From NCBI GenBank assembly GCA_016188545.1, contig JACPHO010000002.1, positions 64,013 through 128,012 of the forward strand: 64,000 nucleotides of DNA, in the 5' to 3' direction. The notes beneath the pieces were generated by a model, which worked only from the letters and a program-made list of their open reading frames with translations, did not search any database and had not been told where the DNA came from. Positions 4,888 through 63,710 of this stretch are shown one piece after another. The position numbers were made by a program, and so were the translations under genes. Every line of letters starts with the position of its first letter. The stretch's first letter is position 1. The stretch is from Candidatus Shapirobacteria bacterium. GTDB taxonomy: Bacteria > Patescibacteriota > Microgenomatia > UBA12405.

Positions 4888-4901
4888 ATTTTTTTAAATT
4901 A

Positions 4902-19504: not shown

Positions 19505-19579
19505 GGAAAAGTTAAAACATAAAAGTTAAAAGTAAAAAATAAAGAAATTTTTGACTCGAATATATGGTTAAATTAAACA

Positions 19580-20299
19580 ATGGGTGTTGATCCACTAAAG
19601 ATTGCAATTAGAGGTAGTACTCAGGAGCATTTGCCGATTGAGGATATTATCGATGGAATGGTGTTACTTAAAGATGGTTCTTGCGTGAGCATTTTACAGA
19701 TTTCTTCGGTAAACTTTGACCTACTATCAGAGCGTGAACAAGGTGCTTTGATTTTTTCTTATGGGGGAATATTAAACTCTCTCAACTTCCCAGTTGAAAT
19801 TGTGATTTACTCAAACACGAAGGATGTAACTTTTTATCTTAATAACTTGAAGAAAGCAGAGGAAAAACAGACGAACATGCTTTTACGGGAACGGATTGTT
19901 CAGTACAGAAAATTTATTGAAGAAACTGTCAAGAAAAATGATGTTTTGTCAAAAGCTTTTTATGTGGTGGTGCCTTTTTCGATTTTGGAACTAGGAATCA
20001 AGAGTATGTCTTCGCAGATGATGGGGGGGATGCCAGTGTTTACAAAGAAAGAGGCAAAAGAACTACCTTTTGCGAAAAGTTATATCTTAGAAAAAGCTAA
20101 GGCAAGTTTGGAACCAAAGAAGAACCATTTGAGTCGCCTTTTTTCAAGACTTGGGCTGGAAATTAGAACACTATCAACTCGGGAATTGATTGAATTATTT
20201 TATAAAATCTATAATGAAGATACTGCAGCCGTACAGCGGGTTTCATCTTTGAACTACGACTCACCGATGATTACTACTAAAGAAAACCCAAAATCCTAA
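19580..20299 (+). CDS. Protein resembling the VirB4/TraC N-terminal domain
   Basis: PIEDIIDGMVLLKDGSCVSILQISSVNFDLLSEREQGALIFSYGGILNSLNFPVEIVIYS resembles the N-terminal domain of VirB4-family proteins. Sits immediately 5' of the VirB4 gene. Confidence 0.4.
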   Translation: MGVDPLKIAIRGSTQEHLPIEDIIDGMVLLKDGSCVSILQISSVNFDLLSEREQGALIFSYGGILNSLNFPVEIVIYSNTKDVTFYLNNLKKAEEKQTNMLLRERIVQYRKFIEETVKKNDVLSKAFYVVVPFSILELGIKSMSSQMMGGMPVFTKKEAKELPFAKSYILEKAKASLEPKKNHLSRLFSRLGLEIRTLSTRELIELFYKIYNEDTAAVQRVSSLNYDSPMITTKENPKS

Positions 20300-20354
20300 A
20301 TCCAAAAGCCATGCCTACCGGCAGGCAGGTAAAAAATAAAAAGCAAAAACAATA

Positions 20355-22973: not shown

Positions 22974-22994
22974 GTGAACTGTATAATAAATTGA

Positions 22995-31756: not shown

Positions 31757-31852
31757 GGGAGAAACTTCTAAAGTAAAAAGTAAGAAATAAAAAGTAAAAA
31801 CATAGTATAGATACGTTAAATTTAAACAACGATACTGGGGCAAAGTTTCGAG

Positions 31853-45034: not shown

Positions 45035-46726
45035 CTATGTTTGTTCCTCTAAATTAATTATGCGTTGGAGTATCGATAGTGTTCCTAAATATACAGGTTC
45101 GGCACCATTGAGCTGAAGGCTTCCGGTTCCTAAATTCTTGGCCTTGGAATAGGGAGTGTCGCTTGTGTAATTGATGATACCGACATCAAATGGTGCCTGG
45201 TGTAAATCAACAATGGAATTTCTGGGAAATTGTTGATCGTAGGTGGCTTCGGAAATAGCGGAAAGATAGGGACCTGATTCCATTTCAATAATAGTTAGAT
45301 TATTGTCGAAATATTTTTTGAGGAGGGCTTCATTTTCGAGAAATGTGCCGAGGACTGAAACAGCTTTTTGATTGGTCAAAATAGATCCTTGGTTGTTGGA
45401 AAATGGAAAAAAGGTGTTGAAACAGTTGTTAAACATGTAGGTATTTTGAGTGTGTTCGTCAAAAACCACTTTGGGCACTTCAACATCACCTAATTCTGAG
45501 TTTAGAACAGCTGCTTTTCCGAGGACGTAGACACCATTGAGCTGGTAAACGTTTTCGAGGACTTCATTGAGGATGTGATAGGCAGCAAAACCCAAGGGGT
45601 AGTCAATGTTGAAGATCAGAGCTTTGGAACGAGCAATGCGGCGACGATCTTTGATAGAAATTTGAGGAGAAAGATATTTTGATTTGACTAAGTTTTTTAG
45701 TGGAAATATCTGAACGTTAATATCAAGGATGTGAGATGAGGGAATGGTTATGACATCAAGTTGCTTTTGGAGGTCGGAATGCATTTTTTTGAGAATGGGG
45801 TCGTTGGCATAAAATTTGGAAACATAGAAGAGAAAATCAGGTTCGGGAAGGGAATTGTTGCCGGCTTGAATTTGTTGCCAGAGTTCATATAACTGGGGTC
45901 GATCTTTTTTTATTTTTGAGATGAGAATGTTTTTGGCTTTGATGGGAAATCCGGTGAAAAGATTGAGTAAACTATGGGTGTTGCTACTAACAAAGTAGAT
46001 GGAACTTTTGGACATGTGGATGGGGGATTTGGTAGTGGAGTGAGAAACAGTGGAAGCAACGTTTTTCCACCATCTTTGAACTGTTTTGGTGTAGTCAATC
46101 CATGAGCCAGCTAAGAGGCGGATGCGGAGGTCGTGAAATTTTTCATAGATAGTAAAAAAGCGTTTTTGAAAGTCTTGGCCAAGGGCGGAAGTGAAATTGG
46201 ACCAGTCTTCGGGGGTGGCGTTAAGATCCTGGGCAATTTTGCCGGATTTAACGGCGGTACGGAATTCTTTGATGGTTTTGTATTTTTCTACGAAAATAAG
46301 GTGGAGTTTGTTCCACTCAACTTGGTAGGCAATAAGGTTGTTGATGATATCGTCCACGTCAGATATTGACCCGATTAGGCTAGCGATGATTCCGGAGCTA
46401 ATATTAACAAAGTTGGTGCGGCGGCGGGCGGGGGAGGGGCATTGGGGCCAGGTGTCGATGTGAGGAAACCCATGTTGGGAAAAAACATCGGGGTTTTGGC
46501 CCATAACAACTAAATTGAGGTGATCAATTTCACTGGGGAGTCGTAATAGAGAATATACGAGGGCGGAAAAGTCGATGACTGCGGGGTTTTCACCGTAGGG
46601 ATGGAGAATTGATTCTAGTCGATTGTGAGGATTGGTAAGAGAATTGATGGTAATCTCGAGATTACTTTTGAGGGCACTGCGATAAGATCTAACGTGAAAT
46701 TCGATGTCGTTGATGGTGGCGGGCAT
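45035..46726 (-). CDS. Hypothetical 563-aa protein with C-terminal nucleoside-phosphorylase-like (PNP_UDP_1-type) region
   Basis: C-terminal GKAAVLNSELGDVEVPKVVFDEHT…LTIIEMESGPYLSAI resembles the PNP/MTA-nucleosidase Gly-rich and ME(S/A) motifs. N-terminal ~350 aa unassigned. Confidence 0.35.
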   Translation of the reverse strand: MPATINDIEFHVRSYRSALKSNLEITINSLTNPHNRLESILHPYGENPAVIDFSALVYSLLRLPSEIDHLNLVVMGQNPDVFSQHGFPHIDTWPQCPSPARRRTNFVNISSGIIASLIGSISDVDDIINNLIAYQVEWNKLHLIFVEKYKTIKEFRTAVKSGKIAQDLNATPEDWSNFTSALGQDFQKRFFTIYEKFHDLRIRLLAGSWIDYTKTVQRWWKNVASTVSHSTTKSPIHMSKSSIYFVSSNTHSLLNLFTGFPIKAKNILISKIKKDRPQLYELWQQIQAGNNSLPEPDFLFYVSKFYANDPILKKMHSDLQKQLDVITIPSSHILDINVQIFPLKNLVKSKYLSPQISIKDRRRIARSKALIFNIDYPLGFAAYHILNEVLENVYQLNGVYVLGKAAVLNSELGDVEVPKVVFDEHTQNTYMFNNCFNTFFPFSNNQGSILTNQKAVSVLGTFLENEALLKKYFDNNLTIIEMESGPYLSAISEATYDQQFPRNSIVDLHQAPFDVGIINYTSDTPYSKAKNLGTGSLQLNGAEPVYLGTLSILQRIINLEEQT

Positions 46727-50544: not shown

Positions 50545-52071
50545 TTATTTGCGTTTTACCCAGCCAAACAGTCCGGCGGTGTCACCAGCGGCATTTCTTA
50601 ATTTATCGCCAGTAGTAAGATTACCTGCATTATTGGGATCGTTATAGTATTCTTGTTGTTTTTGAGAGGCCAGTTGGGCACCAAGACGACCAGCTCCAGT
50701 AACAGGTGCAAAGGCACCTTTTGTACCTTCACCAATCGCCTTACCCCAGGGAGATGGTTTGATGGCGAAGACAAACTCAGGGATCATTTCAGGCAGTTTT
50801 GAGACTAGGGCAATTACTGAAAGACCAATACCGACAGAAATAATACTAGGTAGATTGGCCGTACCAAGCCCCCATGAGGTAAGGGCAGTGGGAATTGACA
50901 TGTTGGAAATGACGCTAGGAGCCCACATACCTTTTTTGGAAAAATCGACCAGCATGTTGCCAACTACCATGAAAATAAGTGACACAGGGAAAATGGCAAG
51001 ATTGGCGATAAGATCCCAAATCCAGGTACTAAATCCCATCTTGGAATTGGGGAAGGCACCCATAGCTAGCTCAAGAGGGGCGATAACTATTTTGAAAATT
51101 ACCGTAACATAGGCCTTAAGACAGCCAAAATAAAACTTGAACATCCAGATAACAACAAGGATTAGCATAACCAGTAGAACAATAACTGGAACAATTCCGA
51201 GAGCAGTAATCGACCACCCGCCAGTAGGAACGAGAAACATAGCAGCAATAATTGCACCAAGTATAAATCCCCAGTACATAAACATGGTTGTTGGTATAGC
51301 TCGGAAAGTTAAATCGGCGTAGGTACCAATACCGGCATTGGTCAGAGTGTCAAAAGAATAGTTTTTGGTGCCATCAAGAAGGTTGGCAGACAGACCTTTG
51401 CCAGTAACTTCAAAAAGCAGAGCGATAACTACACCCTGGACAAAAGTCATTAGGTCGATAAGTAAACCGGCGATAGCGTAGGAAAAAGTGACTAAAACGA
51501 GAGTGGTGATCAGTTGAGGGACAGCATTTTGGACGGTAACCACAGCTTGGGGGGAGATCTTGACCCGGAGCATAATCATGACACCGATAATGATAAAAAC
51601 AAGTGAGGAAAGCAAATAAACTATGTTACGAAAACCCCGCCAGATAGGTAAAATTGGCTGGAGACCAGCAAACCCAAAACCTTGCTGGGCATAGGCCGGT
51701 TTGCCAAGAAAACTATCCTTGAGGCCAGCCAAATATTGGAATCCAGAAGCGGGAGGAGTCCAGAGACTGGCAATCATTTGGTTGGTAAATCCCAACATGC
51801 CGGCGGGAATATAACTAGTGGCGGTGCCATTGAGAACACTGTCGGGAATCTTACCAGTGAGTATTTCTAGTGCGATAACAGCATTACTGTCAAGAGATTC
51901 TTTGAGCCAACGTTCTTGATTGTTGCCTTTGAGAATGGCGTCACTTTTCTTTTTGTAGACACTGTTTTGAGTCGGGGGAGTCTGAGCAAACAAAGGGGTG
52001 ATAAAAGAGAAAAATAAAAAACAAAAAGTAAAAATAAGAAACAGGCGACGCATGGTGAATAATTTTAACAT
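50545..52071 (-). CDS. VirB6/TrbL-like polytopic T4SS membrane protein
   Basis: Signal peptide MLKLFTMRRLFLIFTFCFLFFSFITPLFA-QTP (likely start 52071 or 52053, since the ORF extends to 52245). At least 6 TM helices. Precedes the pilin array. Confidence 0.4.
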   Translation of the reverse strand: MLKLFTMRRLFLIFTFCFLFFSFITPLFAQTPPTQNSVYKKKSDAILKGNNQERWLKESLDSNAVIALEILTGKIPDSVLNGTATSYIPAGMLGFTNQMIASLWTPPASGFQYLAGLKDSFLGKPAYAQQGFGFAGLQPILPIWRGFRNIVYLLSSLVFIIIGVMIMLRVKISPQAVVTVQNAVPQLITTLVLVTFSYAIAGLLIDLMTFVQGVVIALLFEVTGKGLSANLLDGTKNYSFDTLTNAGIGTYADLTFRAIPTTMFMYWGFILGAIIAAMFLVPTGGWSITALGIVPVIVLLVMLILVVIWMFKFYFGCLKAYVTVIFKIVIAPLELAMGAFPNSKMGFSTWIWDLIANLAIFPVSLIFMVVGNMLVDFSKKGMWAPSVISNMSIPTALTSWGLGTANLPSIISVGIGLSVIALVSKLPEMIPEFVFAIKPSPWGKAIGEGTKGAFAPVTGAGRLGAQLASQKQQEYYNDPNNAGNLTTGDKLRNAAGDTAGLFGWVKRK

Positions 52072-52072
52072 A

Positions 52073-53488
52073 TTAGAACTGCATTGATTCGGGTTGTAAT
52101 TGGCGGGCATAGGTGTTGAGAGTGTAGGGATTGCCTGGATCAAAGCTGTGACTGTCGGTGGAAGAAAAAGGACGATGGGGATCGTTGAGAGTGACGTCGG
52201 CTTCCTGGACATATTCAGGGATGAGGTTTTTGCGAGCGACTTCATCGATTTTCATATTGGCTTCCTGAGCGGGTTCGATGTGGTACTCGTAGGTGAGAGA
52301 GTGGGAGAAGGTCATAGCGGTCTCAAAGACAGTACCAAACTCTTCAAGGGACTGTTTGATGGCATAGAGCAGATCATTTGGTTTGTCGCGAATCTCATTT
52401 TTTTCATAGGTACCACAAAAATTGATGGGTGGAATGTCTTGACCGTCATAGTTGATAATGGCCAGTGAGTTAGCCGAAGCAAGAGATTCACCGCGGGGCA
52501 TGTTAGTTTTTTTGATTTCAGGGTTAACATCACGTTCATGGTCGTCGTTGTAGACAAAGACGCGACGCATACTGGGGCCACTGCCCTCAGGCCCTAAGGT
52601 TTTGTAGAGTTTGCAGGCTTCACTGGGGTCAAGAGCCTGAAAAGAGTCACTGGATGGGTCGGTAAAGTCACTGAGTCGGCCTGGAGTGGGAACGGGGAGG
52701 GAAGGATTAGTAGGATCATTGTTGTAGCAATTGTCATCGGGGTTGTAAAAGATTAGATTTTCTTCGGTGCCAGGAAGACAACGTCCAGTAGCAGGGTCGG
52801 TATTGACCAAAGATAGAGTGGGGTTTTGTTCCATGGTGATAGCAATGTCTTCGAGTTGAACTTTTTGACCGTCATCTTGATCGGAGTCGGTGACTGGTTT
52901 GGCGGAACCACCGTCGTACCAAGCAACTTGTTCATTACTGACAACTCCACCACCGGAGCCATTGGCTAATTTGACCGCTTTGACCAGTCTTTGGCCAACG
53001 AGACATTTGAGGACATCTTCGGGCATATTTTTGTTACCGGTGCCAATTGACCCTTCAGCATTGTCCGGAGTATAGGACATAAAGGAGCGGTTGATACTAT
53101 CAGTGTTGAGAAAATTCTTGGGATGGCTGTTGGTGGCTCGGTCGCGACCAAGGGCGGCAGGATTGGTCCAAAAACCTTTGTTGAATATGGGGGGACGGCC
53201 TTGGATTCGATTGACGTCGTAGGGGACAAAGGTAGTAGTTTGTTCACCAGTATTGGGATCAGTGGTGGTTTTTTCTTCAGGTTGGAAAGTTTGGGAAATG
53301 GTGAATTTACCGGTGCAAACTAGACCGACACTATTGGGATAATAGATGGAGTCATCAGAGAGAGCGGTGTCTGCAGGAGGTGAACCAGGGTCGGATCGTT
53401 TGATGATAATTGGGTTGAGAGCCAGAGCAGGAAAAGTAAAAAGTAAAAAGTTAAAAGTTAAAACAATAAATATGAAAACAGGTTTCAT
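52073..53488 (-). CDS. Secreted 471-aa protein of the T4SS/pilin locus
   Basis: Signal peptide MKPVFIFIVLTFNFLLFTFPALA-LNP encoded by an (AAAAGT)n repeat. Asp/Pro/Thr-rich mature protein. Function unknown. Confidence 0.5.
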   Translation of the reverse strand: MKPVFIFIVLTFNFLLFTFPALALNPIIIKRSDPGSPPADTALSDDSIYYPNSVGLVCTGKFTISQTFQPEEKTTTDPNTGEQTTTFVPYDVNRIQGRPPIFNKGFWTNPAALGRDRATNSHPKNFLNTDSINRSFMSYTPDNAEGSIGTGNKNMPEDVLKCLVGQRLVKAVKLANGSGGGVVSNEQVAWYDGGSAKPVTDSDQDDGQKVQLEDIAITMEQNPTLSLVNTDPATGRCLPGTEENLIFYNPDDNCYNNDPTNPSLPVPTPGRLSDFTDPSSDSFQALDPSEACKLYKTLGPEGSGPSMRRVFVYNDDHERDVNPEIKKTNMPRGESLASANSLAIINYDGQDIPPINFCGTYEKNEIRDKPNDLLYAIKQSLEEFGTVFETAMTFSHSLTYEYHIEPAQEANMKIDEVARKNLIPEYVQEADVTLNDPHRPFSSTDSHSFDPGNPYTLNTYARQLQPESMQF

Positions 53489-53896
53489 TTAGTGGCTGGG
53501 GATAATAAAGTTGGTAACGTCGGCACCGGTAATTTTTTTGATGAGTTGAAGAATTAGGTAGGAAGAGACAACACCAACTAACCCAAGAATAGACATGGTA
53601 AGAGTGGATGAGGCAGTGGCAACTCGTTTTTGATCACCACTACTAAAAAGATATTGAAAACCACCATTGATAAACATGACAAAAAAAATGATACCGGCGA
53701 GACCAACTATGACTTGGAGGATGTTACCAAAAAGACACTCGAGACCTTGGAGAGTAGCGACATCGCCTTGAGCGAGGCATTTTCCAGACCAGGTGGATTG
53801 GGCTTGGGCTGGAATAGCGAAAGAAAAAAGAAAAAAGTAAAAAGTAAAAATAAATTGGAAAAAACGATTTCTCATGGGTAGATTATACAAAATCAA
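53489..53896 (-). CDS. VirB2/TrbC-like pilin paralog 1
   Basis: Sec signal peptide (…AIPAQA-QS), then two hydrophobic helices separated by the loop FSSGDQKRVATAS. About 105-aa mature protein. Confidence 0.45.
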   Translation of the reverse strand: MILYNLPMRNRFFQFIFTFYFFLFSFAIPAQAQSTWSGKCLAQGDVATLQGLECLFGNILQVIVGLAGIIFFVMFINGGFQYLFSSGDQKRVATASSTLTMSILGLVGVVSSYLILQLIKKITGADVTNFIIPSH

Positions 53897-53941
53897 CGTT
53901 GATTTACGAAATATGATTCATGATTTAAGAATAGAACAAAA

Positions 53942-53965
53942 ATATCCCCGAGAAATCGGGGATAT
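53942..53965 (-). terminator. Perfect 10-bp stem hairpin followed (minus sense) by a T-rich tract, between pilin paralogs
   Basis: ATATCCCCGAGAAATCGGGGATAT. Read on the minus strand it is followed by TTTTGTTCTATTC, 25 nt after the stop of the 53990..54385 pilin gene. Confidence 0.55.
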
Positions 53966-53989
53966 TTTGATTTGTGATTGATTCCTTGG

Positions 53990-54385
53990 TTATTGGAAGG
54001 AAGGAACTTTGAATCCAGAGAGAAGCTGAATACCGAAAACGGTTTCGATGAGCTTCATAATGGCAAAAGCAGCAAAGACAATAGCCAAACCAATGAGGGC
54101 ATTGGTGATTTGGGCTCGGGCGGCTTCGACGGCTTTTTGATCACCTTCGGACATGACCCATTTGAGACCACCCCAGATGAGGATGAAGAAGAAAACCAGG
54201 GCGACAACCAACATAACTAAACTAATGGCACCGGAAATGATACCACCAAAGGTTAATTTGGTAAGGTTGTTCCAATTGCTGTCGTTGGGAATCAGTTTGA
54301 TATCTTGGGCGTAAACCGGAGCAGCGATAGCTGCGTATTGGACGAGATCTTTGAACTTTTGGACCATAATAGGTGTGTTTTTCAA
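53990..54385 (-). CDS. VirB2/TrbC-like pilin paralog 2
   Basis: Hydrophobic helix 1 (GGIISGAISLVMLVVALVFFFILIWGG), loop MSEGDQKAVEAARAQ, helix 2 (ALIGLAIVFAAFAIMKLI). Confidence 0.45.
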   Translation of the reverse strand: MKNTPIMVQKFKDLVQYAAIAAPVYAQDIKLIPNDSNWNNLTKLTFGGIISGAISLVMLVVALVFFFILIWGGLKWVMSEGDQKAVEAARAQITNALIGLAIVFAAFAIMKLIETVFGIQLLSGFKVPSFQ

Positions 54386-54430
54386 TAAATTATTAATAAT
54401 TAGCTAATTGTAACAGTAAAGTAAATAAAA

Positions 54431-54820
54431 TTAAAGTGTAGGCCAAGTGATGGTAAGAGTGCTTAGTCCAGGGATACCAAGGACTATACCGACAAACTTG
54501 AGGATGGCAAAAATAGAAAAAACGACAAACAGACCGATGGTGGCATAAGTCATTTCATTCTTGCCTGACTCCCACCTTTTGGGATCACCCTCAGAGGCGA
54601 TCAGGTGATAGCCAGCAAAAACTATGTGCCAAACATAGTAAATTATGCCGACAATGAAAAAGATGGAAAAAACGGTTGAAAGGACGCTGTTAAAATAGGT
54701 TTTGGGAGCTGTAGAAGAGGTACAGTTTTTGAGAATGGGATTGCAAATGACCGCATGGACTGGGGTAGAAAAGTAAAAAGTAAAAAGTAAAAAGTAAAAA
54801 GTGGAAATTAGTTTTTTCAT
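54431..54820 (-). CDS. VirB2/TrbC-like pilin paralog 3
   Basis: Signal peptide MKKLISTFYFLLFTFYFSTPVHA. Helix, loop IASEGDPKRWESGK, helix. Confidence 0.45.
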   Translation of the reverse strand: MKKLISTFYFLLFTFYFSTPVHAVICNPILKNCTSSTAPKTYFNSVLSTVFSIFFIVGIIYYVWHIVFAGYHLIASEGDPKRWESGKNEMTYATIGLFVVFSIFAILKFVGIVLGIPGLSTLTITWPTL

Positions 54821-54822
54821 AT

Positions 54823-55179
54823 TTAGAGACCCATTTGGGTGAATAAAGCATTAATGTCGAGGACATTGGTGATACCAGCCAGGGTGGCAATGAGAGAACC
54901 AAGGCCAACAGCAACGATAACAATGGTAAGACCAAGGACACCATTGGTGAGTCGGCTACGGGCAGCAGCCATATTTTTTTCGTCTCCTTGGGAGTTAATG
55001 TAAGAATAACCGGCGAGAATTATTTGAATGGCAAACCAAATAACAGCAAAGATGGTGAGAACACCAATTACTTGACCAACTATTTTTTCAAGAGCAGCGA
55101 CACCGTTGCCAGCAGGTTTGACACCTGGGCCAATGATTTCGGGAACATTAACATCAGCGAGTAGGCGATTAGGGTCCAT
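54823..55179 (-). CDS. VirB2/TrbC-like pilin paralog 4
   Basis: Same helix-loop-helix architecture with loop YINSQGDEKNMAAARS. No long signal peptide. N-terminal region may be processed differently. Confidence 0.4.
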   Translation of the reverse strand: MDPNRLLADVNVPEIIGPGVKPAGNGVAALEKIVGQVIGVLTIFAVIWFAIQIILAGYSYINSQGDEKNMAAARSRLTNGVLGLTIVIVAVGLGSLIATLAGITNVLDINALFTQMGL

Positions 55180-55555
55180 AAATGACTGGGGCTAAAATTT
55201 TAATCCCGGTAAATCTTTCGACAACCGAGGCAATTACAAAAGCGGAGGCAATAATAACCATACCGAGGATACTCTGCCAGATTTGGGTCCAAGCAGTGGC
55301 GGCAGCTTTAGGGTCGCCAGCCGAGTTGATATAAGCATATCCAGCTAGAATTAGCTGGATGATCATATAGATACCACCAATAGTACCGGCGAATTTTAGG
55401 ACATTACCTAAAAATATGAACAGGCCCTGACCGTTGGGACTGGCGTATTTGGGGAGTGGGTTGGTGATGCCACCGATGACGCCTTGAGCTTGCGCTGGCA
55501 GCGCAGAGTAAAAAGTTAAAAGTAAAAAGTTAAAAGTTAAAAAAACTTGTTTCAT
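55169..55555 (-). CDS. VirB2/TrbC-like pilin paralog 5
   Basis: Signal peptide MKQVFLTFNFLLLTFYSALPAQA-QG. Helix, loop YINSAGDPKAAATA, helix. Confidence 0.45.
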   Translation of the reverse strand: MKQVFLTFNFLLLTFYSALPAQAQGVIGGITNPLPKYASPNGQGLFIFLGNVLKFAGTIGGIYMIIQLILAGYAYINSAGDPKAAATAWTQIWQSILGMVIIASAFVIASVVERFTGIKILAPVIYGP

Positions 55556-55559
55556 TTAT

Positions 55560-55901
55560 TTATAGTCCGGAGTTTAATATTTTTAGACCAGTAGTAACTT
55601 CAACTATTTGAACTATGAAGTAAGCGGTGATCACAATGACGAAGCCAATAATAGCGTCGGTTACTAAGGCTTTGCCTTGAGCAGACTTTTTGGAATCACT
55701 ACTGCCTGCGCCAATTATAACCATTAGACCGCCAAAAATCAAAAGAATAAGTAAAATTGTGCCAGCAATGGTAAATGAGTTTTTTACGATTACCGAAATC
55801 AATGATGAAAGAGTGGGAAAAGTTTGTGAGAGAGTTTTACCTGTGCCAGTGGGTGGATCAATAGCGATGGCGAGGAGGCGATTCATGGCGTAATTATACA
55901 A
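55560..55901 (-). CDS. VirB2/TrbC-like pilin paralog 6
   Basis: 113 aa. Helix (TIAGTILLILLIFGGLMVIIGA), loop GSSDSKKSAQGKA, helix (AIIGFVIVITAYFIVQIV). Confidence 0.4.
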   Translation of the reverse strand: MYNYAMNRLLAIAIDPPTGTGKTLSQTFPTLSSLISVIVKNSFTIAGTILLILLIFGGLMVIIGAGSSDSKKSAQGKALVTDAIIGFVIVITAYFIVQIVEVTTGLKILNSGL

Positions 55902-56049: not shown

Positions 56050-56886
56050 ATGAGAAAAATGTGGATCTTTGTGTGGTTTTTGTGTCTAGGGTCTTTGAGT
56101 ATAAGTGCTGATGCCATTGAACGGATCAAGGTGTCACCAACAGCAACAATGACCGCAATAATGGAAACAGCTGTGGGGGAGTCAACACATCCAGTAGTAA
56201 AGATTGAGAAATGGAATGGTTTAAATACAGTAAAAGTAGCTTCAAAAGTGGCCATGAGTCGGGGGGTGTCTGAGATCACCATAGTATTGTTGCTACTTCT
56301 ACCACTTCTAGCCACCTTAATATCGGTACTCCACTATATATTTGGCTTTTCTGGATATGGAATTTTTATACCATCAATGATTGCGGTAGCATTCTTGGCT
56401 ACTGGGGTGACAGTTGGTCTGCTTTTATTTGCAATGATTTTAGTAATGTCACTTCTTAGTAATGTGATGTTGAGAAGGTTCCGACTACATTTTTGGCCAT
56501 CAAGAGCGATTAACCTGGTGTTTATATCATTGGGAACTTTGGGACTGATGTTGGTGATGTCATATGTTCCGATGGCGGAGATGAGTAAAATTTCTATTTT
56601 CCCGATACTACTAATGGTATTGTTATCAGAGGAATTTGTGAGAACTCAATTGGCTAAGAGTCGAAGTGAAGCTAAGAAGTTGACTTTGGGAACACTAATT
56701 TTGGCCGGGGTGGGAGCGGGAATGATGAGTGTAAGAGAGGTTCAAGAAGCGGTACTTTCGTATCCAGAATTGTGTTTGTTTACTGGACTCTTGATAAATC
56801 TTTTAGTCGGGAACTATAGTGGAATTAGATTGTCAGAAATAAAAAGGTTTGGAAAAGCTATTCGAAAGAAGGGAAGTATGAAGTAA
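56050..56886 (+). CDS. Polytopic (7TM-like) membrane protein with ~80-aa extracytoplasmic N-terminal domain
   Basis: Signal peptide MRKMWIFVWFLCLGSLSISADA, then about 7 TM helices. Directly upstream of the ATP-grasp cluster. 7TM proteins are known companions of RimK-like ligases. Confidence 0.45.
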   Translation: MRKMWIFVWFLCLGSLSISADAIERIKVSPTATMTAIMETAVGESTHPVVKIEKWNGLNTVKVASKVAMSRGVSEITIVLLLLLPLLATLISVLHYIFGFSGYGIFIPSMIAVAFLATGVTVGLLLFAMILVMSLLSNVMLRRFRLHFWPSRAINLVFISLGTLGLMLVMSYVPMAEMSKISIFPILLMVLLSEEFVRTQLAKSRSEAKKLTLGTLILAGVGAGMMSVREVQEAVLSYPELCLFTGLLINLLVGNYSGIRLSEIKRFGKAIRKKGSMK

Positions 56887-56912
56887 GATTTATGATTTAT
56901 GAATAGAACAAA

Positions 56913-58310
56913 ATGTTTGGAATTAACCTTAAACAATATAGACAATTTTTGACTAAAAATGAGCGGAATAAGGTATATCTAAGAAAAAACAGCTCATTAG
57001 GTAGAGCAATCGCAGATAGTAAGCATAGAACAAAGATACTTTTAGGAAAGGCTGGTGTGGGTGTACCAGCGTTAATAAAGAGATTCAGAGACAGCTTCGA
57101 GGTGGAGAAATTTAAATGGGAAAAATTAGATGGTAATTTTGTAGTTAAACCGGTATCAGGATATGGGGGGGAGGGAATACTGATAATTAGAAAAATCCTA
57201 AATCCTAAATCCCAAGTCCAAAATAAAGAGACGAGGTGGCAAATGATGGATGGGAAAATAATCTCGGAATCAGGAATAAAAAACCACTGTCAAGACATAT
57301 TAGCTGGAAAATACAGTCTACATGGCATGCCAGATACAGTACTAGTAGAAGAACGAATAAAAATTCATCCAATGTTTTTGGCGATTACAAAGTCGGGGAC
57401 TCCAGATATTAGAGTTATTGTTTATAACAAGGTACCAGTGATGGCGATGTTTAGAATTCCAACTGAAAAAAGTAAGGGTAAAGCAAACCTGCAACAAGGA
57501 GCGATGGGTCTTGGGGTAGACCTGGCAACTGGAATTACCACTTTTGGAATTGAGGGAAAAAGTGAAGAGATAAAAAAATTATATGACAGTGGTAAGAAGA
57601 AGTGGATTAAAGTCAATGGAATTAAAGTACCTTTGTGGAGAGAAATACTTGAAACAGCGGTAAATTGTCAGAAGGCAATACCAGGGCTGGGGTTTTTGGG
57701 AGTGGATGTGGTGTTGGATAAAGAAAGGGGCCCCATGGTGTTGGAGGTAAATTCGCGTCCGGGGTTGTCAATTCAAATATGTAACAAAGCTGGATTAAAA
57801 CAGAGAATGGAGAAGGTGGATGATATCGACGTGAGAAGTACAAACCATGCAGTGACTTTGGCAAAGTATTTGTTTGGTGAAAGTTTTTTTGAAAAGGTAG
57901 AGCAGAAGGAAAAAATAAAAACAGTGGAGCCTTTGGAAACAATTAAAGTAAAAATTCCTAAGGGATTTCGACCGGAACTGAGTAAAAGTCCGATTTTACG
58001 CATGGGTAAACATCGAGTGGTAGAAGTGAGGGCGAAAATTGATACAGGAGCGTTTAGAAGTTCGATTGATGTAGTCTTGGCTGAAAAGTTGGGTTTACTC
58101 CAAGATAATCGGGTACTATATTATCGACATTACCGATCATCCCTGGGGAAAAATAAAGATCGACCAGTAGTGGGAGCAACTTTTTGGCTAAATGGTAAAA
58201 AGGTAACTACGGCGGTAAACGTAGCCGATAGAGCAAAATTGAGGACAAAATTTCTCTTAGGTCGAAAAGACTTGGAGGGTTTTCTTATTAGTGCAAAAAG
58301 AGAAAAATGA
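56913..58310 (+). CDS. Alpha-L-glutamate-ligase-related ATP-grasp enzyme fused to a C-terminal retropepsin-like (DTGA) aspartic protease domain
   Basis: ATP-grasp motifs VKPVSGYGGEGILIIRK and VLEVNSRPGLSIQ. C-terminal VRAKIDTGAFRSSIDVVLAEKLGL carries the D-T-G-A aspartyl-protease signature. Contains an in-frame (AAATCCT) repeat encoding KILNPKSQ. Confidence 0.65.
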   Translation: MFGINLKQYRQFLTKNERNKVYLRKNSSLGRAIADSKHRTKILLGKAGVGVPALIKRFRDSFEVEKFKWEKLDGNFVVKPVSGYGGEGILIIRKILNPKSQVQNKETRWQMMDGKIISESGIKNHCQDILAGKYSLHGMPDTVLVEERIKIHPMFLAITKSGTPDIRVIVYNKVPVMAMFRIPTEKSKGKANLQQGAMGLGVDLATGITTFGIEGKSEEIKKLYDSGKKKWIKVNGIKVPLWREILETAVNCQKAIPGLGFLGVDVVLDKERGPMVLEVNSRPGLSIQICNKAGLKQRMEKVDDIDVRSTNHAVTLAKYLFGESFFEKVEQKEKIKTVEPLETIKVKIPKGFRPELSKSPILRMGKHRVVEVRAKIDTGAFRSSIDVVLAEKLGLLQDNRVLYYRHYRSSLGKNKDRPVVGATFWLNGKKVTTAVNVADRAKLRTKFLLGRKDLEGFLISAKREK

Positions 58311-58334
58311 TTTATGATTTAAGATTTATGATAT

Positions 58335-59345
58335 ATGAATAAAACAAAAAAACAGACAAAGGTAGCATTATTTTTTGGAGGAATGATAAGTCAACACTTG
58401 GTAATGATCCGTAAGGCAGCTAAAAAATTAGGAGTGGATCTTGACTTGGTTTCCTACAACAGAGTCTGTTTTGACAGTCAGGAAAAAAGAGTAAAAATTC
58501 GGGGAAACTTGGGAAGATGGGGGAGTGCTGAGGAATGGATCAACTTGGGAGATTATGACGTTCTTTTTTTTCGGACAACCGGAAAACACTGGGAAGAAGT
58601 AGATTTGGTGGTTAAAGAGGTGAAACAGATGAATGGTAAAAAACCAGTGATTGTTGATCCAATCATTTTAAATGGAAAACCCTCAATGGCTTGCAAAGCA
58701 TACCAAATGTTGGCACTGGGTGAAGCAGGGATTGATGTACCAAGAAGCATTTATGGAAGTTTGTGGTATTTATACGATACAATGAAAGAAATATCCAATA
58801 ACCAAATTTCAAGAAACAAACAATTACCAATATCCAAATTTCAATTTCCAATAATAATTAAAGGGTCAGGAGGAGATCGGGGGACAAGAGTATTTAAAGC
58901 AGACAACTTAGGAAAAATGGAAATTTTGGTAAGAGATTTACGAAAAACTGAAACAGAAGAAGGCAAGAGATATATGTTGCAGGAATTTATTCCAAATGAT
59001 GGGGATTTTAGAGTATTTGTATTGGGTGGAAAAGTGTTAGGAGTGATGAAGCGTTCTGCAAAGCAGAATTCAACAGAATTTAGAAATAATTATAGCGCGG
59101 GTGGAAGTGTTGAAGTGGCGGAATTACCGGTGGAAATAAAACAATTGGCGGTAAAAGCGGCTAAGGCATGCGGTCTGGCTGTGGCTGGTGTTGACGTGGC
59201 TTTTAGAAATAACGATCGAAGCCGACCGGTAATCTGGGAAGTAAACAAAGGGCCACAGTTTAAGGGGTTTATGGAAGCGACTGGGATTGATGTACCGAGA
59301 GAGATAGTTAAATATTTAGTTAGCTTACGTGATAATTCTCAATAA
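58335..59345 (+). CDS. RimK-family ATP-grasp ligase
   Basis: FRVFVLGGKVLGVMKRSAKQNSTEFRNNYSAGGSVEVAELP…CGLAVAGVDVAF…PVIWEVNKGPQFKGFMEATGIDVPREI matches the RimK core (fRv.V.ggk…R.NlhrGG…GvD…lEvN.sPg). Confidence 0.75.
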   Translation: MNKTKKQTKVALFFGGMISQHLVMIRKAAKKLGVDLDLVSYNRVCFDSQEKRVKIRGNLGRWGSAEEWINLGDYDVLFFRTTGKHWEEVDLVVKEVKQMNGKKPVIVDPIILNGKPSMACKAYQMLALGEAGIDVPRSIYGSLWYLYDTMKEISNNQISRNKQLPISKFQFPIIIKGSGGDRGTRVFKADNLGKMEILVRDLRKTETEEGKRYMLQEFIPNDGDFRVFVLGGKVLGVMKRSAKQNSTEFRNNYSAGGSVEVAELPVEIKQLAVKAAKACGLAVAGVDVAFRNNDRSRPVIWEVNKGPQFKGFMEATGIDVPREIVKYLVSLRDNSQ

Positions 59346-59347
59346 TC

Positions 59348-59397
59348 TTTTTTCTCGCTAGTCAATGTGCGGCGCATGTTGAAGGCTTCGAAAAAAA
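59348..59397. repeat. Conserved hairpin-forming intergenic element, copy 3
   Basis: TTTTTTCTCGCTAGTCAATGTGCGGCGCATGTTGAAGGCTTCGAAAAAAA. A single C-to-U change in the inner stem (G-C becomes G-U) relative to copy 2. Starts 3 nt after the RimK-like stop codon. Confidence 0.6.
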
Positions 59398-59436
59398 TAT
59401 TTTCGAATTATTACTTTTTATTAATATATATAGTAT

Positions 59437-60348
59437 ATGAACAAAAAAATCGTTACATTTACAATGTCTTTGAAGCAAAGCCAGTTTGAGGTGAATCGAC
59501 TTGAGGAAGAGGCTAATAAGCTGGGAGTGGAAGTAAACCGAGCGTTATACCGAGACTTAAGATTTGATCTAAAGAACGAAAAGCCACGAGTATTGGTTAA
59601 GGGAGAGGAAGTTACAATGGAGAATACTATAGGAATGTGGTTTAGGGTGGCAGGGACAGTTAGTGGAAAATACACCGAGGGTAGAAATTTGGCGATAAGA
59701 ATGTTAAAGAATAGAATATTTTGTGCCAATCATGCGGGATACTTGGAATGGACAAGAATGGGAAAGATTAGTCAGCATGGGGTGTTTTTGGGGAGTGGGA
59801 TACCAATCGTACCAACTAAAGTTATCTATTCAAGAGCACAAATTATAGAACTTAGAGATGAAATGGAGAGAGATTGGGGGTTTCCAATAATTGCTAAACA
59901 CGAGAGGGGTTATCAGGGGAAGAGTGTAAAAAAGTTCGACAATGCAAAACAAATGGAAAAGTGGGCAAATAAAATTCAAGAGAAAAACCTAGGTATGTTT
60001 TTATGGCAAAAATTTTTGCCAACCAGATGGGATATTCGGGTAATAGTTCTGGATGGTAAAGCTATGGGAGGAATGAAAAGATCGGCTGTTGGAAACGAGT
60101 TCAGAAGTAACTACAGCTTGGGTGGAGAAGTTCAAAAATGGGAATTATCAACTGCCGACTCTGAATTGGCGGAAAAAGTGGCTAAAATTTGTGGTCTAGA
60201 TTATTGTGGGGTAGATATTATGAAAGATGAGAGCGATAAAAGTTACATTCTGGAAGTTAACCGACAATGTCAATTCAAAGGTTTTGAAGAGTCTACTGGC
60301 ATTAATGTGGCCAAACTAGTAGTTGAAATGTTCATGAAAAGAGCATAG
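59437..60348 (+). CDS. RimK-family ATP-grasp ligase (second paralog)
   Basis: IRVIVLDGKAMGGMKRSAVGNEFRSNYSLGGEVQKWEL…CGLDYCGVDIM…SYILEVNRQCQFKGFEESTGINVAKLVV. Confidence 0.75.
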   Translation: MNKKIVTFTMSLKQSQFEVNRLEEEANKLGVEVNRALYRDLRFDLKNEKPRVLVKGEEVTMENTIGMWFRVAGTVSGKYTEGRNLAIRMLKNRIFCANHAGYLEWTRMGKISQHGVFLGSGIPIVPTKVIYSRAQIIELRDEMERDWGFPIIAKHERGYQGKSVKKFDNAKQMEKWANKIQEKNLGMFLWQKFLPTRWDIRVIVLDGKAMGGMKRSAVGNEFRSNYSLGGEVQKWELSTADSELAEKVAKICGLDYCGVDIMKDESDKSYILEVNRQCQFKGFEESTGINVAKLVVEMFMKRA

Positions 60349-60357: not shown

Positions 60358-61218
60358 ATGAGGAAAAGTTTGTTGATTACTTACTTGGTTTTGACGGTGG
60401 TTTTTGGTTTTAATTCGAGGGTGATGGCGGTAGGTGAACCAGCTAAAGAAGGTCAATTGTGTGGTGGAATTGCAGGGATAATCTGTGCTAGTGGATTGAC
60501 ATGTAAATATTCGAACAATACTGGAGTGGACAGAAGTGGGGTGTGTGTTAGAGTCTTAACTCCGACACCAAGAAGACCAGCCCAAGAAGGTCAATTGTGT
60601 GGTGGAATTGCAGGGACAATCTGTGCTAGCGGATTGAAGTGTGAAATGAATCGGTGTGGAGATGGTGGTCAGAAGTGTCCTGATGGATCCGGGGTATGTG
60701 TGAAAATGGCAACGCCGACACCAGTTAGGTTGGCGCAGGAAGGACAGGTGTGTGGTGGCATATCTGGGATAATGTGTGCCAGTGGACTAACTTGTAAATA
60801 TTCGAGTAATACAGGAACAGATAGAAGTGGGGTATGTGTGAAAAGTGTGGCGAAGGTAACTCCAACTTGTGTACCCAGACCAGCATGTTTGGACTTACCA
60901 AATCCATGTCGAATGCCGGAATTACCAGAATATTGTCGAAAACCGAGAGTAACTCCAACCTGTGTTCCAAGACCGGCGTGTTTGGATTTACCAAATCCAT
61001 GTCGAATGCCGGAATTACCAGAATATTGTCCAAAGAGAGGGGTGAAAGGTGACGCTAATGGTGATAGTAAAGTTGATCTGGCGGATTTTTCTATTTGGAA
61101 GAAAGAGTATATAGGTGAGATAAAGACAAAGAGAGCTGATTTTAACGGTGATAGTAAAGTTGATCTGGCGGATTTTTCTATTTGGAAAACTGGTTATTTA
61201 GTTAATATTAAAAAATGA
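60358..61218 (+). CDS. Secreted Cys-rich repeat protein with C-terminal dockerin-type double repeat
   Basis: Signal peptide. Four copies of a ~34-aa module (EGQLCGGIAGIICASGLTCKYSNNTGVDRSGVCV). Two near-identical VTPTCVPRPACLDLPNPCRMPELPEYC modules. C-terminal DANGDSKVDLADFSIWK twice (Ca-binding dockerin pattern). Confidence 0.6.
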   Translation: MRKSLLITYLVLTVVFGFNSRVMAVGEPAKEGQLCGGIAGIICASGLTCKYSNNTGVDRSGVCVRVLTPTPRRPAQEGQLCGGIAGTICASGLKCEMNRCGDGGQKCPDGSGVCVKMATPTPVRLAQEGQVCGGISGIMCASGLTCKYSSNTGTDRSGVCVKSVAKVTPTCVPRPACLDLPNPCRMPELPEYCRKPRVTPTCVPRPACLDLPNPCRMPELPEYCPKRGVKGDANGDSKVDLADFSIWKKEYIGEIKTKRADFNGDSKVDLADFSIWKTGYLVNIKK

Positions 61219-63209
61219 AAGGAATACTGAAAATATTGTCGATGGTGATCTTATTGGCTGCTCTGGTTGGGGCGGGTATTTTGGTAAAAAATAACCAAGA
61301 AACAAGGAGGGGAGCTGCGGCGAGTGAGACTAGTACTCAGATATTGCCGGATAAAGTAACGGCTGGAGTGGGGAAGTCGATTGGGGTTCAGTTGTGGGTT
61401 AATACGGGTAAAGTGACTGATAAATTAACTGGGACAGAATTAAAAGTCTCATATGACTCAAAAATGTTGAAGTTTACAGGGTTTACAGCGGCATCTAGTG
61501 ATTACACACTAATTAACGACCCTGGGACGATGGCGGCTAATACTGGAGTGGTTGATGTGCGGATGGTGGCAATGGGCGTTGAGAAAGGGGGGGCGATCAA
61601 TTTAGGAAAGTTGAGTTTTTCAGTTTTGACCAGTGATAGTGGAAAAGTGGTAGTAATGCCAGGAAGTAAGTTAATGATTTCAGGTCAATCAGCAACATGG
61701 GATGTAGCAAAAAATAATCCAAGTGATATATCAACTGGTGGAGTTACTGCAACAAAAATACCCACCAAGATTCCGACTGTGGGACCAAGTGTTATACCAA
61801 CTGTGTCGGCTGGTCTTTGTGGTTGGTGTGGAATAAATTGCCAGAGACTAGATCCTTTGGCTGACTGTCCTGCTATAGCTTCACCGGTGGGTAAGGTATG
61901 TAAAGAAGTGAGAGGAAGCTGTGTAGTCCAAAATAAATTAGCACAAGAGGGAGAGTTGTGTGGTGGGATAGCAGGAATAATGTGTGCCAGTGGACTAACT
62001 TGTAAATATTCGAGTAATACCGGAGCGGACAGAAGTGGGGTGTGTGTGAAGACAACATCTCCAACTCCGACAGGACAAGTAGCAAGGTGTGGTTGGTGTG
62101 GAATAAATTGTCAGAGACTAGATCCTTTGACTGACTGTGTCGCAATGGCGCCTCCGGCGGGAAAGGTGTGTCGTGAAGTAAGTGGAAGCTGTAAGATATT
62201 ACCTAATATAACGCCAACTCCGGTGGCGACATGTGGACAAAGATGCACAACAAATGCCCAGTGTAAGGGAGGACTGACATGCTCACCAATTTGGTGGCCA
62301 TGCGGTACAATGCCTTCAGTTGAGGTGATGGCCAAACTACAGGCAAGTGAAGGTTTAAGTAAAATACTGGTTGCCCAGATGATTAGAGAGTGTCCGGCTG
62401 TCAAGTCGGTTTTGCCAACTGGATATGCTGGAATGACACTAGTCAAGATGCCAACTTTTTACGGTGTTTGTCGAAATCCTAAGTGTACGTCGAGTCTAAC
62501 TTGTGGTTGTGGTTTAGGAGTAACGCCAACACCAACGATTAGACCAGGTGAGAATATTGGTACATATAGTATGCAATTTTCTAGGACACAAATGACAAAA
62601 GGAGAAGAGGTAATGTTGAATTTGGCGGCAGATGTGGGCGGTAATAGAAAAATATCAGCTGTTAACGTCAAGATAAATTATGGCGGAGCAAATTTTGATG
62701 TAGTTGATATTCAACCTGAAGGGAGAGGGGTTGAAGTTAAAAAAATAATTGATCCTGTGGCAGGAACGATAACACTGTATTACACCTGGAGCTTGCCGGC
62801 TGATAGATTGTTTAATCGGTATACAGTGGCGAATATTAAATTGAAAGCCAAATCTGCAGGTGTAGTAAGTGCGACTTTTGATTCAAGTTATAAGCATGAG
62901 ATATCAGGGCTTGATGAAAATGGTCGGAGCGTTGGTTTTAAAGTAGCTACTTATAGCAGTGGACCAGTGTCGATAACTGATGGCACGCTTGTTTGTAAGC
63001 AATGTGCCGATTCAGCAAGCAAATCGAAAGGTGATGCTAACTGTGATGGTCAAATAAACTCGGTTGACTTTGAGATATGGCGGAGTGAAATGTTTGATCA
63101 AGGTGGCTTAGCTGGTGATACAAAATCGACATGGATGGCTGACTTTAACTGCGACCTTAAGGTCAGTGGTATTGATTTTGAGATCTGGCGGAAGACAGTG
63201 TTTCAATAA
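61215..63209 (+). CDS. Large secreted Cys-rich repeat protein with C-terminal dockerin-like repeats
   Basis: Signal peptide. Shares the LCGGIAGIMCASGLTCKYSSNTGADRSGVCV module at near-identical DNA sequence with the upstream gene. Repeated CGWCGINCQRLDPL(A/T)DC modules. C-terminal DANCDGQINSVDFEIWR and DFNCDLKVSGIDFEIWR. Confidence 0.6.
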   Translation: MKGILKILSMVILLAALVGAGILVKNNQETRRGAAASETSTQILPDKVTAGVGKSIGVQLWVNTGKVTDKLTGTELKVSYDSKMLKFTGFTAASSDYTLINDPGTMAANTGVVDVRMVAMGVEKGGAINLGKLSFSVLTSDSGKVVVMPGSKLMISGQSATWDVAKNNPSDISTGGVTATKIPTKIPTVGPSVIPTVSAGLCGWCGINCQRLDPLADCPAIASPVGKVCKEVRGSCVVQNKLAQEGELCGGIAGIMCASGLTCKYSSNTGADRSGVCVKTTSPTPTGQVARCGWCGINCQRLDPLTDCVAMAPPAGKVCREVSGSCKILPNITPTPVATCGQRCTTNAQCKGGLTCSPIWWPCGTMPSVEVMAKLQASEGLSKILVAQMIRECPAVKSVLPTGYAGMTLVKMPTFYGVCRNPKCTSSLTCGCGLGVTPTPTIRPGENIGTYSMQFSRTQMTKGEEVMLNLAADVGGNRKISAVNVKINYGGANFDVVDIQPEGRGVEVKKIIDPVAGTITLYYTWSLPADRLFNRYTVANIKLKAKSAGVVSATFDSSYKHEISGLDENGRSVGFKVATYSSGPVSITDGTLVCKQCADSASKSKGDANCDGQINSVDFEIWRSEMFDQGGLAGDTKSTWMADFNCDLKVSGIDFEIWRKTVFQ

Positions 63210-63224: not shown

Positions 63225-63710
63225 ATGACTAAATTAATAGTAATAGTGTTGGTAGTAATAGTGTTGGGGGGGGGTGTAATTGCTAGGTATATGATTCGAC
63301 CTGAGGAAGTGGAGATGAATCAGGTTAATGAGCTGGTTGAAAGCGGGGCGATGGCGGTGGTTGAGGGAAGCGAATTAAGAATAAATGTAGCAAAAAAAAT
63401 ATCAATGGTTGATATAACAGTAAAGTTGTCTGAAGGTGTGATTGGTGGATTTGAGACGAATAAGGAGGTGTTTAATTCCGAGTTGTTGAATAGTGTAGGG
63501 GAGGATGGCAGTTTACATCTAGTTCTGGGGATCATGAAAGCAACAAATGAGTTGCCTGACGGTGATATTTTGGTGGGGAAGTTGGTTAATAGCGATGAAC
63601 CTAATGGACAGATTGAGGTGAGTGGAAAAGTAACTGTATCGTCGGATGGCGATAGTCCACCGAGTGAGGTGGAAGTTGGTACAGGAGGAGTAAATGATGC
63701 AGGTGAGTAG
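63225..63710 (+). CDS. Membrane-anchored hypothetical protein
   Basis: N-terminal TM helix (LIVIVLVVIVLGGGVIA). Acidic Gly/Val-rich soluble part. Confidence 0.4.
   Translation: MTKLIVIVLVVIVLGGGVIARYMIRPEEVEMNQVNELVESGAMAVVEGSELRINVAKKISMVDITVKLSEGVIGGFETNKEVFNSELLNSVGEDGSLHLVLGIMKATNELPDGDILVGKLVNSDEPNGQIEVSGKVTVSSDGDSPPSEVEVGTGGVNDAGE

Follow-up and report, generated by a model that had tools for sequence, protein, structure and literature searches.

A candidate enzyme-free cohesin-dockerin assembly with variable disulfide-rich modules in Candidatus Shapirobacteria

Bacteria belonging to the CPR (candidate phyla radiation, Patescibacteria) are believed to live attached to other cells, and the molecules that establish this contact are little known. 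The present analysis concerns four consecutive genes (p1, p2, p3, and p4) from a genome of Candidatus Shapirobacteria, located at the end of a 64,000-nucleotide stretch (contig JACPHO010000002.1, positions 64,013 to 128,012 of the forward strand) which is referred to below as the window and in whose numbering all positions are given. Two of them, p1 and p2, had been described in a first-pass annotation of the sequence as encoding secreted, Cys-rich modular proteins with dockerin repeats, a description borne out by their intact reading frames, N-termini, repeats and Pfam scores. The evidence assembled here suggests that the set specifies a cohesin-dockerin system which displays small disulfide-rich modules at the cell surface.

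The p1-p4 gene set and its cohesin and dockerin domains

An overview of the gene set and of the features of its products is given in Table 1. The p1 and p2 genes are intact open reading frames on the same strand and are translationally coupled, their stop and start codons overlapping in ATGA; the junctions within the p1-p2-p3-p4 set measure -4, +15, and -17 nucleotides (nt). The protein sequences of p1 and p2 are those of NCBI HYV64_03980 and HYV64_03985, respectively, both hypothetical proteins of a metagenome-assembled genome of Candidatus Shapirobacteria (Microgenomates, CPR), in which they lie on a 129-kb contig. No NCBIfam model matches p1, p2, p3, or p4.

Table 1. Features of the p1-p4 gene set and of the block upstream of it (window positions; aa, amino acids)
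Feature	Position	Strand	Description
Upstream block	56050-60348	+	7TM_transglut, ATPgrasp_ST, two RimK-like ATP-grasp ligases; ends 9 nt before p1
p1	60358-61218	+	286 aa, 22 Cys; signal peptide, three CGGIAG modules, two PRP modules, C-terminal dockerin
IB-like (CGGIAG) module 1	60448-60549	+	p1 aa 31-64; 4 Cys; family profiles A2, A3
IB-like module 2	60586-60702	+	p1 aa 77-115; 39-aa variant with longer loop, 6 Cys
IB-like module 3	60739-60840	+	p1 aa 128-161; 44-nt exact tract in common with the p2 copy
Tandem PRP modules (CVPRPACLD...C)	60856-61029	+	p1 aa 167-193 and 198-224; 4 Cys each, 93-nt period; repeat family D4
p1 dockerin	61045-61209	+	pair of nearly identical F-hand segments, DANGDSKVDLADFSIWK and DFNGDSKVDLADFSIWK
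p2	61215-63209	+	664 aa, 30 Cys; hydrophobic helix, cohesin 1, Cys-module stalk, PIWW domain, cohesin 2, dockerin
Cohesin-fold domain 1	61332-61733	+	predicted; p2 aa 40-173
CGWCG 6-Cys module 1	61818-61922	+	p2 aa 202-236; repeat family D3
IB-like (CGGIAG) module 4	61947-62048	+	p2 aa 245-278; apparent mosaic of p1 copies 3 and 1
CGWCG 6-Cys module 2	62088-62192	+	p2 aa 292-326; repeat family D3
PIWW domain (CGQRC...PIWWPC...FYGVCRNPKC)	62232-62510	+	p2 aa 340-432; 10 Cys, partly helical in model
Cohesin-fold domain 2	62553-62990	+	predicted; p2 aa 447-592
p2 dockerin	62994-63185	+	p2 aa 594-657; four conserved Cys
p3	63225-63710	+	161 aa; N-terminal hydrophobic helix; conserved operon member
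p4, N-terminal 102 aa	63694-64000	+	signal peptide and start of cohesin-like domain; runs past window end

Both p1 and p2 had been said to end in two dockerin-like Ca-binding segments, and the comparison with the Pfam family Dockerin_1 (PF00404) that the first-pass annotation had proposed agrees with this, since the scores of p1 (31.4 bits) and p2 (26.3 bits) exceed the gathering score of 22.9 bits and the Ca-ligand residues are in place. The loop pattern D-x-N-x-D-x3-D/N-x2-D is present twice in each protein (DANGDSKVDLAD and DFNGDSKVDLAD in p1; DANCDGQINSVD and DFNCDLKVSGID in p2), positions 1/3/5/9/12 being D/N/D/D/D in both segments of p1, D/N/D/N/D in the first segment of p2 and D/N/D/S/D in the second (DFNCDLKVSGID, with S at position 9). 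With phmmer, the p1 dockerin matched solved type I dockerins at E values of 0.02-0.2. When all six reading frames of the 64 kb were translated and searched for dockerin loops with a regular expression, exactly these four segments were returned, none of them attached to an enzyme. The p2 dockerin is distinguished by its four Cys, of which two form a CxxC pair (aa 594/597) and one stands at position 4 in each Ca loop (DANCDG, DFNCDL). All eight full-length members of the orthologue alignment (A1) retain the four, the pair preceding the dockerin being either CxxC or CxC, and these Cys might staple the dockerin covalently.

The first-pass annotation had seen no cohesin partner in the window, which does not hold, as two cohesin-fold domains lie within p2 itself and the start of p4 is cohesin-like. 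Whole p2 scores 27.1 bits against Pfam Cohesin (PF00963; gathering score 24.1 bits) over two stretches, and its orthologue in the related locus L006 scores 39.1 bits. In an AlphaFold (AF2) model of p2 built on the nine orthologues of A1, beta-sandwiches occupy aa 40-173 and aa 447-592 with a predicted local distance difference test score (pLDDT) of 70-83 and 75-87, respectively. When this model was compared with the Protein Data Bank (PDB) by Foldseek, the top 49 matches were all solved cohesins, the best being the ScaA cohesin dyad 3l8q (E 1e-8), with 2vo8 matching at a target-normalized TM score (TMt) of 0.79. The A1 profile also detected solved cohesins with each domain (domain 1, 5nrk_A at E 0.037; domain 2, 2vn5_A at E 0.004). 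Judged from its model, p2 is thus a two-cohesin scaffoldin. No similarity between the two cohesins could be detected and the dockerins of p1 and p2 also differ, so the cohesins and dockerins of the set are likely, by their sequences, to differ in specificity.

Between its cohesins p2 carries a stalk of disulfide modules joined by linkers rich in Pro and Thr, followed by the PIWW domain, which has no match in Pfam or NCBIfam. The latter is the most invariant part of p2 across the orthologues in A1 and is kept even in the minimal 316-aa orthologue of locus L004. At the N-terminus of p2 (aa 1-38; 61215-61330) the hydrophobic helix is followed by the motif NQETRRGA, of which N27, T30, R31, R32, G33, and A34 are invariant in nine orthologues; such conservation is unusual for the flank of a signal anchor, and the motif may be a processing or sorting site.

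The remaining two genes complete the set. p3 matches no Pfam family and does not resemble cohesin (hhalign E 0.07, probability under 1%); its orthologue in L006 is 41% identical. The p4 fragment is 65% identical to L006 13095-13334, and aligns in register with p2 cohesin 1 (hhalign E 9e-4). The full-length p4 orthologue in L006 (363 aa) combines a cohesin-like N-terminus with a dockerin-like C-terminus, the latter scoring 20.8 bits against Dockerin_1, which is below the cut-off.

Disulfide-rich modules and their diversification

p1 consists of a classical signal peptide (aa 1-24, ...NSRVMA|VGEP), small disulfide-rich modules and the dockerin. The first module type, named here CGGIAG, has the 34-aa consensus EGxxCGGIAGxxCASGLxC...SGVCV with 4 Cys and is not represented by a Pfam family. 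With a profile built from 43 instances, 2429 cluster representatives were retrieved at E<=1e-3 (594 at E<=1e-10) among 1.84 billion proteins, including tandem arrays, a chytrid fungal protein with six copies (P0007) and proteins of Myxococcota. In several proteins from Myxococcota and metagenomes (P0042, P0063, P0132 with 7 Kazal domains, and P0220) the module strictly alternates with Kazal domains; it also occurs with Kazal in P0204 and with antistasin in P0104. A search of the literature returned nothing on "CGGIAG" and nothing relevant on bacterial IGFBP/Kazal proteins. The second module type of p1, PRP, is present as well in P0003, P0004, P0006, P0008, and P0013.

The AlphaFold model of the CGGIAG module is confident (pLDDT 83.7) and three-stranded. 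Its best PDB matches by Foldseek are SIBD-1 (query-normalized TM score, TMq, 0.71) and the insulin-like growth factor (IGF) binding proteins IGFBP7, IGFBP-5, IGFBP-3, and IGFBP-4; these IGFBP-type matches span TMq 0.57-0.71 and 26-39% identity over about 40 residues, at E values (0.07-0.5) that make them weak. The model superposes on the C-terminal subdomain of the IGFBP IB domain ("mini-IGFBP-5" 1boe and 1h59; IGFBP7 8ivd; SIBD-1 3zxc), with which the module has in common the spacing C-G-x5-C-x2-G-L-x-C...G-x-C, and the pairing with Kazal in Myxococcota recalls animal IGFBP7 and HTRA1, in which, as is generally known, the IB domain adjoins a Kazal domain. However, the module has only 4 Cys, compared with 10-12 in IGFBP, and the N-terminal subdomain with its GCGCC motif is missing. 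Pfam IGFBP (PF00219) found no match in p1 or p2 at E<=1 and reached P0007 only at E 0.13. To our knowledge there is no IGF-like ligand in bacteria. The module therefore appears, from its model, to be IGFBP-like in fold and is not called a member of the IGFBP family.

Public precomputed annotation assigns p1 to Toxin_7 (PF05980; spider agelenin/agatoxin-type knottins), and the same label is attached to P0022, P0086, and P0087. In p1 this is best regarded as a false assignment driven by repeats: three partial matches sum to 35.8 bits (cut-off 27), and p1 passes the cut-off only because these partial copies add up. The module does contain the local toxin pattern C-x-SGL-x-C-K, but Toxin_7 knottins have 6-8 Cys and a CC doublet (in part general knowledge), whereas the module has 4 Cys, lacks the doublet and matches profile positions 4-27 of 34; homology with spider toxins was thus rejected. 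Inhibitor cystine knot (ICK, knottin) toxins stand low in the Foldseek list of the module, together with colipase and chains of cellobiose dehydrogenase (4qi4_A and 4qi7_A). The Toxin_7 tag is likely a systematic mis-annotation of the CGGIAG family.

A repeat search detected seven families of direct DNA repeats (D1-D7) which, once translated, correspond to four elements: the CGGIAG, PRP, and CGWCG modules and the two halves of the p1 dockerin. Where the first-pass annotation counted four CGGIAG copies in the 286-aa protein there are three (starting at aa 31, 77, and 128; the 5' 31 nt of the second are the same as in the first), and the additional copy it placed in the 664-aa protein is present once, at aa 245. 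The second repeated family that it reported in the larger protein is CGWCG, found twice (aa 202 and 292) with 83% nt identity over 105 nt. Its view that the cassette in common between the two genes is almost identical in DNA was overstated: p1 copy 3 and the p2 copy agree at 90/102 nt (88%), with an exact tract of 44 nt (60769-60812 = 61977-62020) and many differences on either side. The tandem PRP pair (VTPTCVPRPACLDLPNPCRMPELPEYC), described as a perfect duplication, is perfect at the protein level, where the 27-aa core is identical, and imperfect in DNA (82/91). Only synonymous changes separate the two cores, which points to selection preserving the peptide (purifying selection) more than to a very recent duplication.

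Several observations point to exchange between copies. Within the 44-nt tract p1 copy 1 departs from both p1 copy 3 and the p2 copy at 7 sites, while the 3' end of the p2 copy equals p1 copy 1 over 21 nt; read from its sequence, the p2 copy has the mosaic structure that gene conversion produces. By a permutation test in which differences were placed at random and no site-specific constraint was modeled, so that the P values are indicative only, a difference-free run of 44 nt has P about 3e-4; the corresponding values are 2.5e-5 for an exact 41-nt tract common to the halves of the p1 dockerin and 0.02 for a 43-nt exact tract in the tandem PRP pair. Canonical CGGIAG copies are 83-89% identical in protein sequence within this genome and at most 59% identical to the copy of any orthologue; other lineages have two distinct CGGIAG subtypes which are conserved between genomes. 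When the modules of 19 family members were mapped, orthologues were seen to have 0-6 of them in the stalk, in varying order, with recurrent module types common to the p1 and p2 families. The mosaic tracts, the likeness of copies within the genome and the changing number and order of modules agree with the earlier proposal that the cassettes are shuffled by recombination or gene conversion, and "variable extracellular scaffold" is a fair reading of this turnover together with a divergence far faster than that of the neighboring genes. Duplication and gene conversion are accordingly offered as the best reading of how the displayed modules may have been shaped. An origin of the repeats in faulty assembly is ruled out, as the copies differ at 10-25% of bases with frames intact and the same module types occur in orthologues from independent metagenomes.

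Conservation of the locus and other genes of the window

A cohesin/dockerin gene directly follows the last of three ATP-grasp genes in 8/8 loci (the window, L001-L006 and the contig of P0070). In loci with enough sequence the cohesin/dockerin genes are followed by a glycoside hydrolase family 18 (GH18) gene and DedA, and T4SS-pilin paralogues lie further upstream. L006 reproduces the p1-p4 order (a p1-like dockerin protein, a p2-like cohesin protein, a 148-aa protein and the 363-aa protein), as does the P0070 contig by gene size and Pfam. Partial versions of the set occur in L001, L002, and L004, the last with a 318-aa dockerin protein beside the minimal cohesin and PIWW protein, whereas L003 encodes two proteins of the form cohesin...dockerin with unrelated middle modules and has an unrelated gene among its ATP-grasp genes. 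p1 and p2 are 32-48% identical to their relatives and only partly alignable, compared with 63-83% for the flanking 7TM and ATP-grasp proteins. The p1-p4 set is an island of fast evolution whose place in the genome is fixed.

In the block immediately upstream, 7TM_transglut scored 81.9 bits and ATPgrasp_ST is fused to a retropepsin-like (RimB/Zn_protease-like) C-terminus. In a scan for promoters and terminators the counts were close to those expected from shuffling, and none of the signals between the ATP-grasp genes and p1 was convincing.

Further upstream, 53489-55901 (-) encodes six tandem T4SS_pilin (PF18895) paralogues of 113-135 aa, an array conserved in L006 and the P0070 contig, and beside it (50545-53488) are two large proteins without a family match. 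Genes resembling type IV secretion components occupy 18575-26465 (+) and specify a protein of the PrgI family, a TraG/VirB4-like P-loop ATPase of 872 aa and a 1156-aa protein whose C-terminal domain is C39 peptidase-like. A 563-aa protein at 45035-46726 (-) matches DUF6909 end to end (517.9 bits). The window also contains dnaN (28929-30053, -) and dnaA (30404-31843, -); GC skew is positive in all 2-kb bins of 1-64000 (0.05 to 0.42) regardless of gene orientation, with no sign switch around dnaA/dnaN, and hence no origin-type switch is visible in the window. A copper-type P-type ATPase with two HMA domains is encoded at 732-6410 (-) next to a 502-aa fusion of HMA, DsbD_2 (CcdA-like thiol-disulfide transporter) and a cupredoxin-like domain. 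As an exporter of reductant the DsbD_2 fusion could be relevant to the extracellular disulfide folding of p1 and p2, though it lies 55 kb away.

A possible enzyme-free assembly at the cell surface

The reading favored here, to which a probability of roughly 0.55 is given, is that p1-p4 form an enzyme-free (non-cellulosomal) cohesin-dockerin assembly which displays variable disulfide-rich modules at the cell surface. p2 would be the scaffoldin, anchored in the membrane by its N-terminal hydrophobic helix, beyond which two divergent cohesins would be held apart by the disulfide-module stalk, with its Pro/Thr linkers, and the PIWW domain; its C-terminus would provide a dockerin of a different type from that of p1. 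p1 would be a small secreted cargo composed solely of disulfide-rich modules (three CGGIAG and two PRP) and a symmetric dockerin, and would dock in a Ca2+-dependent manner onto one cohesin of p2 or of p4, leaving the dockerins of p2 and p4 to engage the remaining cohesins. With three dockerin types and three cohesin-like domains in the set, a chain or lattice on the cell surface could result. Since cohesin-dockerin biology is well established, that p1, p2, and p4 assemble through such contacts is strongly inferred. The displayed mini-modules would be the business end of the structure, and their role is probably adhesion, that is, binding to a partner cell or surface ligand. Wang et al. (2023; PMC10633639) found a dockerin-domain envelope protein to be essential in a cultivated Saccharibacterium and suggested a role for it in host interaction; this result would fit adhesion, although it does not prove it.

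The proposed assembly can be compared with several known systems. Non-cellulosomal cohesin-dockerin pairs, such as those of the Clostridium perfringens toxins and glycosidases (2vo8, 2jh2, 2w1n), and the cohesin of Archaeoglobus fulgidus (2xdh), all among the Foldseek matches of p2, likewise combine a cohesin beta-sandwich with a duplicated Ca-binding dockerin outside cellulose degradation. Unlike these systems, p1-p4 have no catalytic subunit attached, the cargo being small disulfide-rich modules only, the p2 dockerin has conserved Cys in both Ca loops and the genes belong to a fast-evolving four-gene CPR operon. p2 also recalls the anchoring and adaptor scaffoldins of cellulosomes (for example Acetivibrio cellulolyticus ScaA/ScaB, Clostridium thermocellum CipA/SdbA), having more than one cohesin, linkers rich in Pro and Thr and, as in the adaptor type, a C-terminal dockerin that differs in type; in contrast to these scaffoldins it lacks family 3 carbohydrate-binding (CBM3), X and S-layer homology (SLH) modules, anchoring being assigned to the N-terminal hydrophobic helix, and, unlike in cellulosomes, no dockerin-bearing enzymes were found in the window.

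A number of points weigh against this interpretation. The modules carry no established ligand-binding signature, and nothing supports adhesion directly. Instead of an anchor, the helix at the N-terminus of p2 could represent a cleaved signal peptide. Taken singly, the p2 cohesins fall below the Pfam cut-off (domain 1, 17.5 bits; domain 2, 21 bits), and the p2 model, derived from an alignment of 9 sequences, is of only moderate quality as a whole (mean pLDDT 59) and poor outside the two beta-sandwiches, the dockerin included (pLDDT about 30). In addition, p3 has no recognizable fold and the window holds only the first 102 aa of p4.

Other explanations account for part of these data. It is unlikely that the set is purely structural, with p2 and p4 polymerizing into an S-layer-like envelope lattice in which the Cys modules are rigid spacers without a ligand. 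The equal numbers of dockerin types and cohesin-like domains, the occurrence of cohesins and dockerin together in p2, the Pro/Thr linkers between compact disulfide modules and a module number that is dispensable (0-6 in orthologues) would all suit such a coat, but it leaves unexplained both p1, which has nothing besides modules and dockerin, and the purifying selection on module sequence (PRP cores with synonymous changes only). A coat of protease inhibitors, in which CGGIAG acts as an inhibitor or decoy domain and the dockerin tethers arrays of it against host or environmental proteases, is improbable. It draws on the alternation of the same module with Kazal, a serine-protease inhibitor, in other bacteria, on its association with antistasin in P0104 and on the IGFBP-type structural matches, given the animal proteins cited above; nevertheless, Pfam finds no Kazal or antistasin domain in p1 or p2, function cannot be transferred from co-occurrence elsewhere and we know of no IB-type domain that is itself a protease inhibitor.

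That p2 is the scaffoldin of a minimal cellulosome or chitinosome, recruiting dockerin-bearing glycoside hydrolases encoded elsewhere while CGGIAG acts like a CBM1, is very unlikely. The GH18 gene downstream of the operon in relatives speaks for it, but those proteins match Glyco_hydro_18 only, with no Dockerin_1 match on record, and no enzyme-attached dockerin-loop segment exists within the 64-kb window. The module profile matches fungal CBM1 chains weakly (E 0.4-1.7), and the Foldseek list includes 4qi4_A and 4qi7_A, here assumed to match through their CBM1; however, Pfam CBM_1 (PF00734) scores 11.1 bits against a cut-off of 20.6, no CBM was found on the scaffoldin p2, and the modules of the window contain one aromatic residue each and no aromatic face, the flat aromatic triad of CBM1 (known generally) being missing from the sequence, for which reasons a true fungal CBM1 was rejected. 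There is at most a slim chance that p1 and p2 serve the ATP-grasp/7TM system as substrates or partners, for instance as glutamylated or otherwise ligated peptides. The last ATP-grasp gene stops 9 nt before p1 and the adjacency recurs in all eight loci; yet the whole neighborhood is syntenic in relatives, from the T4SS pilins upstream to GH18 and DedA downstream, so that adjacency may only reflect conserved gene order, and L003 has an unrelated insertion among the ATP-grasp genes. Moreover, the ligases are cytoplasmic whereas p1 and p2 are Sec-exported disulfide proteins, and the 7TM_transglut/ATPgrasp_ST association is widespread without cohesin or dockerin genes.

The enzyme-free surface assembly can be extended, as a speculation that is itself rather doubtful, to a CPR-specific "adhesome": a self-contained, enzyme-free organelle of three cohesins and three dockerins whose exchangeable cargo would belong to an undescribed prokaryotic family that is akin to the IGFBP N-domain, numbers at least 2429 cluster representatives and often occurs with Kazal. 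Intragenomic gene conversion would diversify this cargo so that it keeps pace with the surface ligands of a host or partner, in the manner of variable surface antigens.

Should the locus encode only a structural coat, the finding would amount to an ordinary widening of the range over which cohesin-dockerin systems are known. What is new here is the presence in a CPR lineage of an enzyme-free cohesin-dockerin system whose disulfide modules have had no annotation. The locus also brings to notice the 4-Cys family itself, likewise unannotated, which is widespread in bacteria, occurs in at least one fungus and is currently mislabeled as Toxin_7. If the favored reading is true, p1-p4 would provide a concrete candidate, open to testing, for a modular device that serves attachment or surface display in Microgenomates.

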